Of a DNA stretch of 64,000 nucleotides, positions 5,951-36,089 are shown in pieces (the first letter of the stretch is position 1; the number at the start of each line of letters is the position of its first letter). Source of the DNA: Chthonomonas calidirosea (lineage in GTDB: Bacteria; Armatimonadota; Fimbriimonadia; Fimbriimonadales; Fimbriimonadaceae); contig CAMAPH010000002.1 in NCBI GenBank assembly GCA_945859975.1, positions 1 to 64,000 on the forward strand, written 5' to 3'. Under the pieces are notes generated by a model. That model did no database searches, was not told the origin of the DNA, and worked only from the letters and a program-made list of their open reading frames with translations. Position numbers and translations under genes: made by a program.

Positions 5951-6505
5951 ATGTGGGCAGTATTAGTGTTTCTCGCGGTGATCGTCGCACTTGTGATTTT
6001 TGGCATCTCGGCCTACAACGGCCTGGTTCGCCTACGACGCGAAACCGAGAACGCATTTAGCCAGATCGACGTTCAACTCAAGCGTCGCTACGACGTGATC
6101 CCGAACCTCGTCGAAACGGTCAAGGGATACATGAAGCACGAGCAGGACACGCTTGAGCGAGTCATCTCCGCCCGAAACCGTGCGCTTGGCGCCAACACCG
6201 TTGGCGAAAAGGCAGCCGCCGAAGGCCAGGTCGCTTCGGCTCTGACCGGCCTCTTTGCCCTCTCTGAGGCGTATCCAGAGCTCCGAAGCAACGAGAACAT
6301 GCTCTCGCTTCAGGAAGAACTGAAGAGCACGGAAAACAAGATTTCCTTCGCTCGCCAGTACTACAACAACACGGTCACTTCGTACAACACGAAGATTGAG
6401 ACGTTCCCAAGCAACATCATCGCGAACTCCAGCGGCTTCAAGCCAAAGGACCTCTTCGAGATCGAAGATCCGATCGAACGACAGAACGTCAAAGTTTCGT
6501 TCTAA
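5951..6505 (+). CDS. lemA: LemA family protein
   Basis: N-terminal TM, YNGLV, IDVQLKRRYD.IPNLV, EAYPEL, TENKI.FARQYYN. Confidence 0.95.
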   Translation: MWAVLVFLAVIVALVIFGISAYNGLVRLRRETENAFSQIDVQLKRRYDVIPNLVETVKGYMKHEQDTLERVISARNRALGANTVGEKAAAEGQVASALTGLFALSEAYPELRSNENMLSLQEELKSTENKISFARQYYNNTVTSYNTKIETFPSNIIANSSGFKPKDLFEIEDPIERQNVKVSF

Positions 6506-6546
6506 ACGGTCACCACGTTTCGGCGTAGTTTCGTTACACTGAGGGA

Positions 6547-7794
6547 ATGGCATCGTCTGCGGCACAACGGCGTCCGGTGAGTCGGCTCCAGCGGACGATA
6601 CGTTCCCTCTTGGTGATTTCGGGCATCGGAATAACCCTCGCGCTGATCAACACGTTCACCCTGCAATCCGACATCCGCACTGCAGTTGGGCCAGAGTCGG
6701 ACGGTCAGAAGCAGTTCTTTATCGCCGCGGCTGACCGACCCGACGTTGCGGTGTTCTTCAAGAATCTCAAGCCGGAGGAACGGATCTCCGTGGCACGGAA
6801 CATCGCCCGCTACGATGATCCAAAACTGGCGACCTTGATTGCAAAACTGCTCGCCGACTTCGATGTCGAGGCTCGTGCAGAGCTCGGAAAGTCGCTGACG
6901 AAGCTCGCAAAGACCCAGCCTCAAGCGGTCGCCGACCAGCTCAAAGAGCGTGGCAGCTTCCAGCAGCTTGCCATCACGCAGTCCATCCAAACCCTTGGCT
7001 CCAGCGCAATTCCCTTCGTGATCAAAACTCTGGAAGTCGCGGATGCCCGAACAAATGCTGTGAGCTTTCTGGTCTCGCAGGGGACACCTTCCGTGCCGGC
7101 TCTGATGCCGTTGTTGAAGGGCGAGAACAAAGATATCGTCCTAAGTGCAGCCGATGCCCTTGGGAAGCTGAAAGCGCAAGAAGCTTCCCCCCAGCTACAA
7201 GAGCTTTACAAGGAGGCGATTCCCGCCGATCGGGCGGCATTCCTGACCGCGCTCAGCAGCATCGGCGATCCACGTAATGAGTTCATTTTCCGCGAAGTGC
7301 TTTCCAACGCGAAGGAGCCACTTCCCCTTCGATCGCAATCGGCACTGGGACTCGGGCGAATTGGATCTCCGTCCGCAACGAGGCTGCTCTGGCAATACGC
7401 GTACTCCGATGAACGCGAGCTTGCAAACAGTTCTATTAGTGGACTTCAGTTCTCTGGCGACCCTGCGCTTACAGAGAGGACGACGTTCGACTTGGTTACG
7501 GCAAAAGTCGCGTCTGGCATCACGGGCCCTAGCGCCGATCGCGCTCTGTCGCAAGCCCTTAGCAATCCGAGCATTGCGGCCGAAGTTGCGAAGCTCTGCA
7601 CCGAGCGACCGACGCTGGTTCCCGCACTAATGGCTACTTTGCAGAAGCTCGAACTTTCGGAGCAAGGTGATCTGGCGGACGCCGTATTGCGATCGCTTTT
7701 GACGACCGATATCGGTCGCGCAAAGGTTGCTGCTCTCAAGTCAAACGACCCGATTCTTGCCGCCTTAGTTGCTCGGCGGGAAAACGGCGTCTAA
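6547..7794 (+). CDS. Membrane-anchored HEAT-repeat protein
   Basis: Single N-terminal TM; repeated AA.ALG.L/I HEAT-like helices. Confidence 0.8.
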   Translation: MASSAAQRRPVSRLQRTIRSLLVISGIGITLALINTFTLQSDIRTAVGPESDGQKQFFIAAADRPDVAVFFKNLKPEERISVARNIARYDDPKLATLIAKLLADFDVEARAELGKSLTKLAKTQPQAVADQLKERGSFQQLAITQSIQTLGSSAIPFVIKTLEVADARTNAVSFLVSQGTPSVPALMPLLKGENKDIVLSAADALGKLKAQEASPQLQELYKEAIPADRAAFLTALSSIGDPRNEFIFREVLSNAKEPLPLRSQSALGLGRIGSPSATRLLWQYAYSDERELANSSISGLQFSGDPALTERTTFDLVTAKVASGITGPSADRALSQALSNPSIAAEVAKLCTERPTLVPALMATLQKLELSEQGDLADAVLRSLLTTDIGRAKVAALKSNDPILAALVARRENGV

Positions 7795-7803
7795 GTCGCT
7801 TGT

Positions 7804-8898
7804 TTAGATCCCGGATCGGGACAGGCGTGGAACGCTTCCCGACAGGATTCGTGCCCGTCTGGCACGATCGATGCTCATGGCATCGACTTCTTTCTCGAAC
7901 GACCGGAACCCAGCAAGGTCGAAGCCATGCTTCTCGGCCAAACCGGAGATCTGCGTGACCTGTTCAAGGCTCACGTCTTTACCGAGTGTAAAGCTGTAGA
8001 GGTCAGGGTTGCCTTCCAGAGAAAGCATCATGGTCTCGCTCATGCAGGCATAGGCGGTTTCGGGTGGGAAACCAAAGTCGAAGTTGAAGTTGACGTTGCC
8101 CGGAACTTTGACGACGCCGCCTTCGATGACCAAAACGTCGGGTCGCTCTTTGGCAACTCGGACCGATACATCGCGGGGTCGCGCAACATCGCACACAATC
8201 GCACCTTGCTTGAAATGTTCTGGCAAGAGAATCGCCGAATCGGATGAAGTTACTGCGATGACCGCATCGGCCTCGCGAATGCGCGAAACCTCAGTAGTCG
8301 CAATCGCGCCGGGAATTTCGCTGGCGACTTGTTCCGTCCGTTCCTGATCTCGTCCGACCAGGAGCACTTGCCCAAACTGCGGAGCGAGGGCGCGTGCGCA
8401 AGTTTTGCCGATTGCACCGGTTGCTCCGACGACGGCGAGCACCGCTTGGCTAGTGTCAATCTCAAGGAGCCGGCAAGCTCGGATCGTGCCTTCGATCGCG
8501 GTTGCGACGGTATAGCTGTTTCCCGTGGTTACCGCAATCTTCGATCGCTCACGGATCGTAATTCCGCCGTCACCAACCACGCTTGTGAACGCACCAAGGC
8601 CAACGAGGTCTGCGCCTAGATCGGCCGCCATGTCGGTGCACTGGACGAGTCGGTCATAGACCAGCTCTAGCGGAAGCTTTTGCGTCATCTGGGCCGGGGT
8701 GAGGGGACAGCCAATGAACCAACCTTCGGCTTCGGCACCGGTCTTCGACTTGATTCCGGAGATCTTGCTGACCAAGATCGGCCCTTTGCGGGCGGTGTAC
8801 ATTTCAATGAGCCAATCCGGCATATGCCGCGCCATCGGATACTGCTTCGCAATGTCCTTAGGATGGAGCGGATGGATGATAAATGCGAATCGGTTCAC
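7804..8898 (-). CDS. COG5322-type NAD(P)-dependent reductase (acyl-ACP/thioester reductase-like; often auto-annotated shikimate dehydrogenase)
   Basis: FAFIIHP, LGAFTSVV, TTGNSYT, Rossmann VVGATGAIG, DVARPRDV, YACMSET. Confidence 0.8.
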   Translation of the reverse strand: MNRFAFIIHPLHPKDIAKQYPMARHMPDWLIEMYTARKGPILVSKISGIKSKTGAEAEGWFIGCPLTPAQMTQKLPLELVYDRLVQCTDMAADLGADLVGLGAFTSVVGDGGITIRERSKIAVTTGNSYTVATAIEGTIRACRLLEIDTSQAVLAVVGATGAIGKTCARALAPQFGQVLLVGRDQERTEQVASEIPGAIATTEVSRIREADAVIAVTSSDSAILLPEHFKQGAIVCDVARPRDVSVRVAKERPDVLVIEGGVVKVPGNVNFNFDFGFPPETAYACMSETMMLSLEGNPDLYSFTLGKDVSLEQVTQISGLAEKHGFDLAGFRSFEKEVDAMSIDRARRARILSGSVPRLSRSGI

Positions 8899-17590: not shown

Positions 17591-18373
17591 ATGTCCATTC
17601 CTGTTCCGGCCACGCACCTATCGATGACGAGTTCCGCAATTGCTCTGCGGGAGCGGGCGCGGTCCCTTGGAGTGGATTTGGAAAACCTGCCGCAGCACAT
17701 TGCCATCATCATGGATGGCAATGGTCGCTGGGCCAAAGCACGTGGCTTCGCCCGTTTGTTAGGCCACCGGGAAGGCTATCGGGCATTGCGCGGAATACTT
17801 CTTGCGGCTAGCGAACTCGGCGTTCGCTACCTGACCGTGTATGCCTTCTCCGTGGAGAACTGGCGACGGCCTCAAGACGAGGTGATGGGGCTCATGAAGC
17901 TCATCGAACAAGCCGCGCGTGATGAGCTTCGGTTGATGCACCAGAACAATGTGCGGGTGAACATCACCGGTAGGGTTCATGAGGTGCCCGAAACTCTGCA
18001 GCGAGCCCTTCGCGAAGGGATGGAAACGACCTCTACAAACACTGGTATCACGTTCACCCTGGCGGTGAACTACGGCGGCCGCGCGGAAATCACCGACGCA
18101 GTCAAGGCAATTGTTCGCAACGGGACACCGGCCGATGAGATCACTGAAGAGATGATCTCTCAGAACCTTTACAACCCGCATCAGCCCGATCCCGACCTCA
18201 TGGTCCGAACTGCCGGCGAGATGCGCTGGAGCAACTTCCTGATCTGGCAGTCCGCCTACACCGAACTCGTGGTTAGCGATGTGTCGTGGCCCGACTTCAA
18301 GCCGGACCACTTGATCGAAGCAGTGAAAACCTACCAGGCGCGAGTGCGCAAGTTCGGCGCCGTCGTCGAATAA
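17591..18373 (+). CDS. uppS: Undecaprenyl diphosphate synthase
   Basis: HIAIIMDGNGRWA, YAFSVENWRRP, NYGGR, RTAGEMRWSNFLIWQ. Confidence 0.97.
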   Translation: MSIPVPATHLSMTSSAIALRERARSLGVDLENLPQHIAIIMDGNGRWAKARGFARLLGHREGYRALRGILLAASELGVRYLTVYAFSVENWRRPQDEVMGLMKLIEQAARDELRLMHQNNVRVNITGRVHEVPETLQRALREGMETTSTNTGITFTLAVNYGGRAEITDAVKAIVRNGTPADEITEEMISQNLYNPHQPDPDLMVRTAGEMRWSNFLIWQSAYTELVVSDVSWPDFKPDHLIEAVKTYQARVRKFGAVVE

Positions 18374-18388
18374 ACCCCTCCGGGTAGA

Positions 18389-19156
18389 TCAGTCACAGCG
18401 CCAGTACCAAGTGTTGTCGTAAGCCTCGGTCGAACCCGTAGCTTCGCCGGAGCGGTTACCCGCAACGTTCACTCGGATGTCGTCAAACTGCCCCTGCGCG
18501 TTCGCCGCCTTCGCATGGCTGTCCATGTAGATCACGCTTCCGCCGGTTGAACTCCATTTCCGGAAGTAGCCACAGTCGTAGCCATATCGAGTGCAATCGG
18601 GATCGTTCTTCGCTTCAAAGAACGGCATCATCTCCAGCCGAATGAAGCGAGTCTCCGCCGGAAACTCAACCGAAGTCTCGTTAACAATTTGGTTGTAATC
18701 GTAGGTGAAGTTGTTCCCAGATGATTCTCCGGCGACTACGGTGTGGACACATTTGCCGAACCGGTATGAAGATCCGTAAGCCGAATAGTAAGTCGGATAT
18801 GAGCCACCGGCGGCACTCAGACCAGGGTCGGAAGCGAGATATGGCCCGCCGGCGTCAAGCGGACTTCGGAAGATTTCCTGGTTGTTCGTGTAAGGCAACA
18901 GCAGAAGCTCGGTTCCCTTGTGGCCGACTCGGCCAAATGGTGGCTCGGAGTTGTAGGCGTAGAAGATCGGCATCGTGTCGTCGTAATCCGCGAGATACAG
19001 CTTGTTCGCGATTCCAATTTGCTTGGCGTTGCTGAGGTCAGCCGTTCGCTTGGCCGCTTCTTTGGCTTGCGCGAAGACCGGGAAAAGGATGGCCGCCAAA
19101 ATGGCGATGATCGCAATGACGACGAGAAGCTCAATGAGCGTGAAGGCAGCTTTCAT
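18389..19156 (-). CDS. Prepilin-type N-terminal cleavage/methylation domain protein (DUF1559/H-X9-DG-like), TPP-riboswitch controlled
   Basis: [36 protein letters not shown]...LSN.KQIG; degenerate C-terminal motif [12 protein letters not shown]. Confidence 0.9.
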
Positions 19157-19224
19157 GGTTTTTCCGGACGCGAATCACCTTCGCTGACTGCGAAAGCGAT
19201 TGGCGCTCCGGGCGGCTAAACCAT
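19153..19224 (-). promoter_or_regulatory. Long hairpin sequestering the start codon (riboswitch expression platform)
   Basis: Minus-strand nested pairings ATGGTTT/AAACCAT, CCGGA/TCCGG, GCG/CGC, AATCGC/GTGATT, TTCGC/GCGAA; the 3' arm includes the AT of the start codon. Confidence 0.65.
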
Positions 19225-19241
19225 CCGTCGTTCCATCGTTC

Positions 19242-19334
19242 ACCGCAATCCCTCCGCCGGTACTAACCGGATCAGGTTCCTAGGGTCATCTGGCAAAAAC
19301 CAGAACTCTCAGCCGTGTGGCTCCCCTTGCAGGT
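19242..19334 (-). ncRNA. TPP (thiamine pyrophosphate) riboswitch
   Basis: Minus strand reads CTGCAAGGGGAGCCACACGGCTGAGAGTTCTGG...CCAGATGACCCTAGGAACCTGATCCGGTTAGTACCGGCGGAGGGATTGCGG, with the THI-box hallmarks GCTGAGA, ACCC, GAACCTGAT, P5 CCGG/CCGG and GCGGAGGGA. Confidence 0.95.
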
Positions 19335-19363
19335 AAATCTTGTCCTACTAGATTCTACGCTAT

Positions 19364-19849
19364 TTAGATGTTAACAATCTTAGGAACCAGGAATTGGGTT
19401 TCGCGAAGATCGGTTCCGTTCTCGAGCACCGACTTCAGGTTCGTGAGATAGAAGGTCCAACCCTGAACGCAGCCGAAGGCCCACTCGGCTCGCTTCGTTT
19501 CATCTTCGTGGCTTTGCGTTTGGACAACTTCCACGCAGGTCCGCGTCAGTTCCTCCGAGAATCGAACCCTCACGGCGCAATCGGGCCCGAAGGTAAAGGC
19601 GACCTCCTCGTTGGCGACAATATTCGTGAACTCGCCCTCTTCTCGGGTTCCCTCAAGCCAAGTCCATTCGTACTTCCAACCGACTTCCGCCACCACATCT
19701 TGCGGCTGGACTTCCCCATCCTTGGTGTGAAAGGCGTCCAGGAACCACTTTCCGATCTCGTCCGGTACCGTCCAGGCGCGAAACACGTCCACCGGCGTTC
19801 GGGCAATCAGGATGCGAAGTGTGAACGAGTCAAAGCTGGTCTGGCTCAT
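19364..19849 (-). CDS. SRPBCC/AHSA1-like domain protein
   Basis: VFRAWT.P....KWF and GWTFYLTNLKSVLE; overlaps the idh stop (ATGA). Confidence 0.85.
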   Translation of the reverse strand: MSQTSFDSFTLRILIARTPVDVFRAWTVPDEIGKWFLDAFHTKDGEVQPQDVVAEVGWKYEWTWLEGTREEGEFTNIVANEEVAFTFGPDCAVRVRFSEELTRTCVEVVQTQSHEDETKRAEWAFGCVQGWTFYLTNLKSVLENGTDLRETQFLVPKIVNI

Positions 19850-20859
19850 GATGCCAACGCCGCGATCACGGCATCGCCATACTCACGGCTCGTGGCTGTG
19901 CCGCCGAGGTCGCCCGTCATGAGCTTGCCGTCTCCAAGGACCTTCAACACCGCGTTCGAGATGCTTGTGGCCTTCTCGTGCTCGCCGATATGGCGTAGGA
20001 GCAATACCGCGCTGAGGAGCAGCGCGGTCGGGTTCGCAATGCCCTTGCCTGCAATATCGGGCGCAGAGCCGTGCACGGCTTCGAAAACCGCGTAATGCTC
20101 TCCGATGTTCGCTCCCGGCGCGAGTCCAAGGCCGCCGACCAATCCGGCGCACAGATCGCTGACGATGTCGCCATAAAGGTTTTCGGTAACGAGAACGTCA
20201 AATTGTTCTGGTCGCGTGACCAACTGCATGCAGCAGTTGTCGACGATGATGTCGTCCGCGATGATGTCGGGATACTCGTTCGCCATCAGATAGAACTCTT
20301 CAAGGAACATTCCGTCGGTCAGCTTCATGATGTTTGCCTTATGGACAGCGGTGATTCGCTTGCGTCCCTGGGCTTTCACCATCTCAAACGCGTATTTGAA
20401 GATTCGCTTGCAACCCGGGCGGGTGATGACTTTGATCGCCTGCGCGATGTCCTTGTGCGGCTGAAACTCGATTCCGGCGTAAAGGTCTTCGGTGTTTTCC
20501 CGGACGATGATCAGGTCGATCTTCGTGTCTTCAAAGTGTCCCTTCAGGTTCGGAATAGTGATCGATGGTCGAACATTGGCGAACAGATCAAGTGCTTTGC
20601 GAAGCGCGACGTTGGCGCTGACGTGGCCTTTGCCAATTGGCGTTGCCGTTGGCCCCTTAAGGGCGATGCCCAGTTCTCGAATGGCTTGAATCGTTTCCTC
20701 GGGCATTGCCGGCAATCCTCGGTCCAAGGCTGGTTGTCCAGCTTCAAGTTCGACCCACTCGGGTTCAAATCCCGCGGCTGCCAAAATTCGCCGCACCTCG
20801 GCGGAAATCTCCGGTCCAATGCCGTCTCCGGAAATCATGCCGATGCGTCTATTTGCCAT
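19846..20859 (-). CDS. idh: Isocitrate dehydrogenase (NAD-type; IDH/IPMDH family)
   Basis: GDGIGPE, LKGP.ATP, SANVALR, RENTEDLY, HKANIMK, NLYGDIVSDL, FEAVHGSAPDIAG. Confidence 0.88.
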   Translation of the reverse strand: MANRRIGMISGDGIGPEISAEVRRILAAAGFEPEWVELEAGQPALDRGLPAMPEETIQAIRELGIALKGPTATPIGKGHVSANVALRKALDLFANVRPSITIPNLKGHFEDTKIDLIIVRENTEDLYAGIEFQPHKDIAQAIKVITRPGCKRIFKYAFEMVKAQGRKRITAVHKANIMKLTDGMFLEEFYLMANEYPDIIADDIIVDNCCMQLVTRPEQFDVLVTENLYGDIVSDLCAGLVGGLGLAPGANIGEHYAVFEAVHGSAPDIAGKGIANPTALLLSAVLLLRHIGEHEKATSISNAVLKVLGDGKLMTGDLGGTATSREYGDAVIAALAS

Positions 20860-35201: not shown

Positions 35202-36089
35202 ATGGCACGCACTCACCTCAATCGAAAGGGCTTTACGCTTATCGAGCTCCTCGTTGTCATCGCCATCATCGCTATCTTGGCGGCAATCCTCTTCCCCGTA
35301 TTCGCACAGGCTAAGGAAGCCGCGAAGAAGACTCAAGACCTCAGCAACAACAAGCAGATTCTGCTTGCCACGCAGATGTACATGGGCGACTTTGACGACA
35401 TCTACCCGATGCTCCGAAATGGCCAGACCTTCTGGTCGGCAAACGTGACCGCACCGCAGATCAACAGCGGCCACAACATGGTCAACCCGTACATCAAGAG
35501 CAAGGCCATGTGGCGATCGCCAAACGACACCATGGGTCGATGCGACGCGAACTCTACGGGCTACTCGACCAACGAGAACCACGCAACCGGCGGAGTCGTT
35601 AGCTACGTCTTCACCTACAACTCTCCAAACCGAGCCCATGCCTACGGCATTGCTGGCTGGGATAGCACCGGCGCAGCGGGAACTACGGTCCAGACGTTCA
35701 AGTCTGCTTCGAAGTCTGGAACGGAAATTGGAAACGTTGGCCTCACGATCTTCTTGATCCCAAGCTACGTTTCTTGGACCTACTGGAACGGTCTGATGCA
35801 GCACCGAAACGACCAGCGCGAGTACGCGTTCGCACCTGGAACGCCCGGCGTTGCCGGACACGCACTTTGGCCAAGGGTCAACTCGATCCCAGGCGCTTGG
35901 TGCAACACCCAGGATGCCATCTCCCTTGGTAACTACGGCGGAAACACGAACTTCGGATTCGCCGACGGTCACAGCAAGTCGATGAACCGAAACAGCATCA
36001 TGGATGCACGTTGGGCTTCTGCTCCGGCAGACGCAATCGCGAACAACGCGCGGAACCTCATCCACACGGACGAGCGCTACAAGAACTGA
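35202..36089 (+). CDS. Prepilin-type N-terminal cleavage/methylation domain protein (H-X9-DG-like)
   Basis: [31 protein letters not shown] and C-terminal [15 protein letters not shown]. Confidence 0.92.

Follow-up and report, generated by a model that had tools for sequence, protein, structure and literature searches.

A TPP riboswitch paired with a pilin-like gene in Armatimonadota and its probable link to thiamine acquisition

The stretch of DNA analyzed here (the window) comprises the first 64,000 nucleotides (nt) of contig CAMAPH010000002.1 in a Chthonomonas calidirosea assembly (GCA_945859975.1, called G000 below) from the family Fimbriimonadaceae of the phylum Armatimonadota, and it carries a thiamine pyrophosphate (TPP) riboswitch upstream of a lone gene for a prepilin-type protein (18389-19156, minus strand; 255 amino acids (aa) plus stop). 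The riboswitch is ordinary; the gene under its control is outside the described thiamine genes. The reading favored here, with a probability of about 0.6 on the basis of sequence comparisons, is that the pilin-like protein takes part, under thiamine regulation, in the acquisition of thiamine by an auxotroph, a role to which all comparative tests that were run assign the gene. The most likely form of that role, if less probable than the role itself, would be direct binding of thiamine by the globular domain of the protein, feeding a permease of the SSF family. The reading rests on the riboswitch itself, the pattern of auxotrophy, the conserved association of switch and gene, the operon partners found elsewhere, the predicted pilin fold, and the separate clade formed by the proteins concerned; ligand binding, location, hand-over to a permease, and filament involvement are what we infer beyond them.

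According to the proposed mechanism, the TPP riboswitch would turn off a pilin-fold envelope protein once TPP suffices, in a cell that, unable to make thiamine, would import it and pyrophosphorylate it via thiamine pyrophosphokinase (TPK). The pilin-like protein would be the thiamine-regulated part of this import route, with the prepilin-type helix tethering it to the inner membrane or to a type IV filament, and with the clade-specific, aromatic-rich domain, in which two disulfides are predicted, binding thiamine or thiamine phosphate in the envelope. The ligand would then be handed to an inner-membrane permease, presumably the candidate SSF permease encoded elsewhere in the genome (G000:C23:10059-11516).

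Pairing of the riboswitch with the gene

A cmscan search of the whole window identifies the aptamer (THI element; 19231-19337, minus strand) as RF00059 (68.1 bits, gathering cut-off 54.3; E-value 3e-11), with all model positions covered (1-105 of 105). It is the one Rfam match at or above gathering score in the 64-kb window, and RF00059 matches nowhere else in the 3.12-Mb assembly. The original prediction, which had been made from the letters of the sequence, placed a canonical TPP aptamer at 19242-19334 (minus strand) and offered a search with RF00059 as its check, and the search agrees with it apart from the exact ends. The conserved sequences of the pyrimidine and pyrophosphate sensors are CUGAGA and ACCUGAUCnGGnUnAUnCCnGCG; the window aptamer has GGCUGAGA and AACCUGAUCCGGUUAGUACCGGCGGAGGGA, and the sensor columns are invariant or nearly so across 55 aptamers from relatives.

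The association of the riboswitch with the pilin-like gene was followed in an order-level set of 61 genomes (G000 and 60 relatives, with the loci of 57 relatives read). Exactly one TPP riboswitch is present in 58 of the 61 genomes, and in 47 of these 58 the gene behind it is an orthologue of the pilin-like gene, the others having thiC or a membrane protein in that place. The orthologue follows the riboswitch in all 35 genomes of family f1 (own genus only, G000 included), in 3/3 genomes of family f2, and in nine of the ten genomes of family f5, the tenth (G050) having thiC; thiC follows it in 9/9 genomes of family f4, and a membrane protein in the single genome of family f3. Not every f1 and f5 orthologue is intact as read: contig ends truncate two, that of G023 is without a canonical in-frame start, and that of G046 is broken by bases withheld from the sequence. 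Full-length thiC occurs in 10/61 genomes, which are exactly those with the switch before thiC, and full-length thiE and thiG are confined to family f4 (10/10). The distribution of thiC, thiE, and thiG is thus complementary to that of the pilin-like gene, which stands behind the switch in lineages without thiamine synthesis.

A wider sample was obtained with a profile of the globular domain (alignment A2), which picked up 195 relatives in contigs chosen at one genome per species; the 80 best were retained, and these loci are labelled mostly as Fimbriimonas, Fimbriimonadaceae, Fimbriimonadales, or Armatimonadota, with a few under other names. A covariance model made for this purpose from the relatives' aptamers (R1), which captured nine base pairs and served as a detector only, places an aptamer on the same strand just upstream of the orthologue in 79 of these best 80 loci. 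The lone miss (L150) lies at a contig end, with just 209 nt ahead of the matched part. When the 14 weakest R1 hits were re-scanned with Rfam, all 14 were RF00059 at or above gathering score in the same places. The question posed alongside the original prediction, whether orthologues keep the TPP switch, is thus answered affirmatively by both samples (79/80 loci; 47/58 genomes of the order). Since it recurs in 79/80 orthologue loci, the pairing is far beyond chance, and because the flanks differ between genomes, switch and gene move as a two-part cassette.

Across the phylum, an even draw of 151 genomes gave a TPP match in 104, and the analysis took up those matches that reached gathering score in genomes outside the sets above, 110 matches in 90 genomes. 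A prepilin-type gene (224-266 aa) stands directly behind 52 of the 110 riboswitches, in 52 of the 90 genomes and in 12 families, a count that is a lower bound because several loci cut by contig ends were counted as negative. The 58 other riboswitches, wherever an open reading frame (ORF) was found, precede thiC, Thi4, thiG, thiE, thiD, thiM, or a permease of the cytosine/purine/thiamine type. Pfam searches of the genes that come after the pilin-like gene (47 proteins from 28 loci) identify TPK in 17 of the 52 loci, followed by an SSF permease in 11 of the 17; in a further 2/52, the gene immediately behind the pilin-like one encodes an SSF permease. TPK and/or an SSF permease therefore follows the pilin-like gene in 19/52 loci. 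At one locus (L205:1432-2262, minus strand; genome G140, family f28) the order is TPP riboswitch, Thi4, and DUF1559 prepilin-type gene, with the pilin-like gene inside a biosynthetic unit.

The genome of the window contains many prepilin-type paralogs (48 ORFs with the strict motif; 67 tblastn matches), and the relationship of the riboswitch-controlled proteins to these was assessed in a FastTree phylogeny of 166 head domains with the helix removed (96 TPP-linked, 24 linked to vitamin B12 (cobalamin) riboswitches, and 46 other G000 paralogs). Ninety of the 96 TPP-linked proteins group together to the exclusion of all others, with a support of 96, which is an SH-like value only, in a tree where many paralog branches are long. 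Five of the six outliers come from family f19 and one from family f33; they look like a second recruitment because they also sit with SSF or TPK-SSF genes.

These results bear on the idea that the riboswitch is a relic of a lost thiC that came to lie by chance before a member of an abundant gene family. With roughly 48-67 prepilin-type paralogs in the genome, a random neighbor could well be one of them, and relatives that bear thiC do carry the switch before it. A relic, however, would not account for the same clade behind the switch in 79/80 loci and 12 families, for an aptamer that stays at or above gathering score, for flanking genes that vary as the switch-gene pair persists, or for TPK and permease genes that join the unit elsewhere. 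This explanation is largely refuted and its probability is negligible.

Thiamine genes and the transcription unit

Thiamine synthesis genes are missing from the G000 assembly as far as it goes: there is no match at E <= 1e-3 to thiC, thiE (TMP-TENI), thiG, or thiD (Phos_pyr_kin), in an assembly of 3.12 Mb and 101 contigs whose 95.8% completeness means that absence is not proven. Every one of the 36 genomes sampled from the genus shows this pattern, and several of those are closed. A two-domain TPK is encoded on contig C19 of G000, and since thiC, thiD, thiE, and thiG are unmatched but TPK is present, the organism appears to need external thiamine. Of the importers searched for, neither Thia_YuaJ/ThiT nor the Pnu family matches in G000. 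The genome has one SSF permease (C23:10059-11516), which shares 35-40% full-length identity with the SSF permeases encoded in the riboswitch operons of other Armatimonadota, these being 43-45% identical to one another at the low end; this makes it the natural candidate for the inner-membrane step. A candidate thiL of G000 was rejected, as it scores 40.9 bits against a cut-off of 184 and the gene is that of an AIRS-family protein.

Other membrane proteins were seen near the switch in relatives. In one genus subclade, a multi-pass family of ~220 aa with an N-terminal SNYPR motif and no Pfam match is encoded directly downstream of the TPP-controlled pilin gene (L128:5692-6372, 6288-7055, and 7158-7832, plus strand, as three tandem copies; L129:5701-6357; L145:5779-6444; L156:5662-6372), and these proteins may be a permease. 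In family f2, the operon (L076:3055-3723, minus strand, and neighbors) consists of the riboswitch, the pilin-like gene, a PF09819 (ABC_cobalt) membrane protein, a second DUF1559 prepilin gene, and an amidohydrolase. The SNYPR family (with 5-6 transmembrane helices), the PF09819 protein, and the membrane protein of G038 have no homologue in G000 (tblastn, E <= 1e-2). At the f5 locus with thiC behind the switch (L059, genome G050), thiC is followed by DUF6775 and a fused Phos_pyr_kin-ThiN, with no ThiE or ThiG match there.

Within the window, the pilin-like gene starts with an ATG at 19156, with an in-frame TGA 21 nt upstream. Downstream of it lies uppS (17591-18373, plus strand; Prenyltransf PF01255, 273.1 bits), which is convergent and bounds the transcription unit, the stop codons of the two genes being 15 nt apart. 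On the other side, an AHSA1/SRPBCC-like gene on the same strand (19364-19849, minus strand; PF08327, 49.7 bits) ends 26 nt ahead of the aptamer. As uppS is convergent and the AHSA1-like gene ends before the aptamer, the pilin-like gene is alone in its unit, so that the ORF map and Pfam agree with the lone gene and convergent uppS of the original prediction.

The 3' end of the aptamer is separated from the ATG by 74 nt (85 nt if counted from the end first predicted), and this linker is the putative expression platform (19157-19230, minus strand). Its predicted fold (ViennaRNA, -36.8 kcal/mol) has a strong hairpin (19211-19164) with no U-run and an outer 7-bp helix in which 19224-19218 pairs with 19161-19155 and which takes in the start codon's first two bases; between -14 and +3 relative to the AUG, 14 of 17 nt are base-paired in this fold, and the z-value of the whole-leader fold is -2.26. 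A scan for terminator-like sites found none in the 74-nt linker, and one at 19107-19093 was disregarded as lying inside the coding sequence; a promoter scan of 18200-19900 found none. Among relatives the linkers vary, some having U-runs after a hairpin and some having clear GGAG-type ribosome sites. Contigs from four freshwater RNA libraries, 95-99% alike, span the aptamer and the coding sequence, leave parts of the stretch without cover, and have ends near 19303-19325; contigs cannot prove transcription, and their bridging of aptamer and gene gives the favored reading weak support.

The protein, its relatives, and the cell envelope

The first 25 residues of the window protein (19082-19156, minus strand) form a class III (prepilin) signal and an N-terminal hydrophobic helix, as the N-methylation motif of the original prediction implied: residues 2-25 match both PF07963 (N_methyl, 27.2 bits, cut-off 21.2) and TIGR02532 (NCBIfam, 28.7 bits, cut-off 16.3), and nothing beyond this prepilin motif was matched in Pfam and NCBIfam. 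Positions -1, +1, and +5 of the signal are occupied by Ala, Phe, and Glu, respectively (MKAA/F), and residues F5, T6, L7, E9, and L10-A18 of the precursor are invariant in 39 orthologues, whose mean column identity over the whole protein is 58% (alignment A1). The globular domain (residues 46-255; 18392-19021, minus strand; alignments A1 and A2) has a mean column identity of 55% (alignment A2). The variable domain had been described beforehand as aromatic-rich with four Cys, and the counts bear this out, with four Cys and 33 aromatic residues out of 210 (15.7%) after residue 45. Its clade-specific invariant residues are Y54, D57, Y68, Y89, D101, Y123, A126-Y127-G128, S130, F133, C136, N148, R170, R173, W201, D212, and C254; among the four Cys of the 39 orthologues, C136 and C254 are invariant and C188 and C195 nearly so.

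An AlphaFold2 model made with the 39-orthologue alignment (pLDDT 93.4, pTM 0.86) consists of a helix (residues 7-57), strands (131-218), and a mixed head domain. Foldseek found no match to this model in the PDB at E <= 1e-3. The top rows of a VIA-align search are all type IV pilins or pseudopilins (PilA4, Z 5.3; type IVb pilin, 4.9; EpsG, 4.2; then PilV, ComP, and PulG), with Z between 5.3 and 3, too low for more than fold-level evidence. Known thiamine-binding and transport families (ThiB/TbpA, ThiY, ThiT, YkoE/F, PnuT, CytX) appear neither among the Pfam/NCBIfam matches nor in the fold lists, where a missing match excludes no family.

The original prediction assigned the protein to the DUF1559/H-X9-DG pilin-like families. 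Among the orthologues, PF07596 (DUF1559) matches 22/39 at E <= 1 (best E 1.2e-9) and TIGR04294 (H-X9-DG) matches 8/34 at E <= 1 (best E 2.2e-4), but the window protein itself matches neither even at E <= 1. Because it is unmatched while its orthologues match, it is better described as a divergent relative than as a scored DUF1559 member.

A second vitamin riboswitch in the same order is associated with a different paralog. Matches to RF00174 (cobalamin) occur in 54/61 genomes, and a prepilin-type paralog other than the TPP-linked one, with the signature SLSNLKQIGLAW, lies 100-280 nt behind the cobalamin element at 24 of the 30 relatives' loci retrieved and in G000 (25/31 in all). Many of the relatives' cobalamin elements before the prepilin paralog score above gathering. 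The G000 element (C1:51086-51226, plus strand) is borderline, just under gathering (RF00174, 27.8 bits against 31.5; RF01689 AdoCbl-II at C1:51125-51214, 36.2 bits against 36.5, E 4.1e-5), and its position and gene are the conserved ones; the gene (L321:2327-3088, plus strand) is alone in its unit. All 24 B12-linked proteins in the phylogeny fall into one clade with a support of 98, and the TPP-linked and B12-linked proteins of G000 are alike over the first ~100 residues only. Elsewhere in the order, a cobalamin riboswitch is followed by a protein of 316-474 aa with a signal-peptide-like N-terminus and no pilin-like gene (L305, L316, L319, L320, L301 from family f4, and L296 from family f3), the motif GYTPPTGY occurring early in several of these proteins.

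It had also been suggested that the whole paralog family is a set of interchangeable nutrient-capture tips. The cobalamin-linked paralog provides a second, independent case; on the other side, an Rfam scan by E-value upstream of ~30 other G000 paralogs found no riboswitch, only tRNAs and the cobalamin element, and no flavin mononucleotide or molybdenum cofactor riboswitch was found in G000. With two cases only and ~30 other paralogs without an Rfam riboswitch, the suggestion is an extrapolation when applied to the whole family. One of the paralogs without a riboswitch (L009) lies in the window itself, at 35226-35630 (plus strand).

The conserved polar residues invite another explanation, in which the protein would be an envelope enzyme of thiamine salvage, such as a phosphatase that, ahead of uptake, frees thiamine from thiamine monophosphate or TPP, or a hydrolase that recycles degraded thiamine. 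The operon logic of riboswitch, TPK, and permease would be the same, the invariant D57, D101, N148, R170, R173, and D212 could form an active or phosphate site, and the nearly invariant H79, E83, E175, H214, and K216 are likewise possible site residues. Nevertheless, no enzyme family was matched in Pfam or NCBIfam and the predicted fold is that of a pilin, the DG(H) region is common to the whole non-enzymatic-looking superfamily, and binding accounts for a B12-linked paralog more readily than catalysis does. An enzyme is therefore an unlikely alternative to a component of thiamine uptake.

The envelope of this organism offers machinery with which a pilin-like protein could act. In G000, a diderm-type genome, there is no match to the TonB-dependent receptor barrel (PF00593), and the genome encodes three secretins, one prepilin peptidase (Peptidase_A24), and eight T2SSE-type ATPases. 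This gene set, together with the lack of a TonB receptor match, fits uptake via type IV filament machinery but does not show it. On contig C6 (G000:C6:53130-56826, minus strand), seven tandem short pilin genes (131-154 aa) near a secretin and a T2SSE ATPase look like a true pilus locus. Genus g19 of family f1 has a second TPP riboswitch, ahead of genes for proteins of 216-222 aa that have a similar pilin-like head domain, two or three N-terminal membrane helices, and no FTLIE motif (L248:2464-3129 and L248:1761-2429, minus strand; L251:222-872, plus strand). Because these TPP-controlled proteins use a polytopic anchor without a prepilin motif, a filament would not be obligatory.

The same machinery would also serve a pilus subunit or adhesin that is induced by vitamin starvation for contact with vitamin-producing partners or particles and that does not bind the vitamin. 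Such a role would suit the prepilin-type N-terminus with its conserved Glu at +5, the secretins, peptidase, and ATPases just listed, and the control of two different paralogs by two vitamin riboswitches. It is hard to reconcile with the TPK/permease operon linkage in 19/52 loci of the phylum, which points to an uptake pathway, with the TPP-controlled versions that have a polytopic anchor and no prepilin motif, and with the tight conservation of the globular domain (55% mean column identity), and it is accordingly rated very unlikely.

Several observations weigh against a role of the pilin-like protein in thiamine acquisition, or against parts of the proposed mechanism. Residue -1 is Ala in 31/39 orthologues and Gly in 8/39, and because the window protein has Ala in place of the canonical Gly, its cleavage by a prepilin peptidase is not assured. 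Fold searches yield low-Z pilins alone (<=5.3) and nothing like a known thiamine-binding protein. In G000, no thiamine-related gene adjoins the pilin-like gene, and both the candidate SSF permease and TPK are without riboswitch control. A same-strand gene is found within 250 nt downstream in 28 of the 80 orthologue loci, none of them thiamine-related, and a Pfam scan of neighbors in the 57 relatives and the 28 further loci found nothing thiamine-related within Fimbriimonadaceae. The 80 loci moreover overlap the order-level genomes, and kin are non-independent samples. Finally, the predicted hairpin without a U-run and the paired start codon do not single out one mode of control for the putative expression platform.

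The findings can be extended, by analogy with the uptake of DNA by competence pili, to a retractile vitamin-capture pseudopilus. Riboswitch-matched pilin subunits, of a thiamine clade and a cobalamin clade, would be switched on by the matching vitamin riboswitch and built into such a filament, a short one, which would draw vitamins across the outer membrane through a secretin into the periplasm in place of TonB-dependent receptors and then supply an inner-membrane permease; the DUF1559/H-X9-DG proteins of Armatimonadota and of the Planctomycetota-Verrucomicrobiota-Chlamydiota (PVC) group would on this account be a repertoire of nutrient receptors. This extension is speculative, and the odds are well against it.

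Comparison with known systems

No report of a riboswitch-controlled pilin-like gene was found in the literature covered (full text, with subscription journals outside coverage). What the present analysis adds is the occurrence of the gene by itself in a complete auxotroph, the complementary distribution of thiC and the pilin-like gene inside a single order, the phylogenetic test of the clade, the parallel with cobalamin, and the variant whose anchor has no prepilin motif. In Planctomycetota, Verrucomicrobiota, and Armatimonadota, few paralog families are larger than those of the DUF1559/H-X9-DG proteins. A 2023 paper (PMC10632474) calls the DUF1559 prepilin family one of unknown function and describes Planctopirus limnophila as having 68 DUF1559 paralogs, two of which are essential. 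A riboswitch names its ligand, and here two clades of such proteins stand behind thiamine and cobalamin switches, respectively, with the thiamine clade travelling with TPK and a permease; a huge protein family without an assigned function thereby gains a concrete, testable link to vitamin uptake. If the proteins are vitamin receptors, they would constitute a new way for diderm bacteria that lack TonB-dependent receptors to take up vitamins, and vitamin dependence could be better predicted in freshwater and soil communities in which Fimbriimonadaceae are common.

Known thiamine uptake operons encode TPK with a ThiV-type SSF permease, YkoEDC, ThiT, or, in Bacteroides, PnuT with an outer-membrane receptor. 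The present system resembles TPP-riboswitch operons for thiamine salvage and uptake in its RF00059 aptamer, in the expected repression by TPP of the uptake genes of an auxotroph, and in the presence, in other Armatimonadota, of TPK and an SSF permease or of a PF09819 component. It differs from them in that the first and most conserved gene encodes a protein with a predicted pilin fold and no similarity to a described thiamine transporter, binding protein, or enzyme, and in that the pilin-like gene is the sole gene under the switch in G000.

With type IV pilins and the pseudopilins of the type II secretion system (e.g., PilA, GspG/PulG/EpsG, ComGC, and ComP), the window protein shares a class III signal with Phe at +1 and Glu at +5 and, in its predicted model, a long N-terminal helix and a beta-sheet head, and genes for the machinery are present in the genome. 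Minor pilins that bind ligands exist, and the DNA-binding ComP is among the fold matches; to our knowledge, no pilin serves the uptake of small-molecule nutrients. Unlike these proteins, the window protein has a head domain about twice the usual size and Ala at -1, and it is encoded by a solitary gene away from any pilus cluster, under the control of a vitamin riboswitch. The DUF1559 (PF07596, 'SBP_bac_10') and H-X9-DG (TIGR04294) proteins have the same kind of N-terminus, are of comparable size, and likewise occur as numerous paralogs in each genome; the TPP-linked proteins stand apart from them as their own clade with their own invariant residues.

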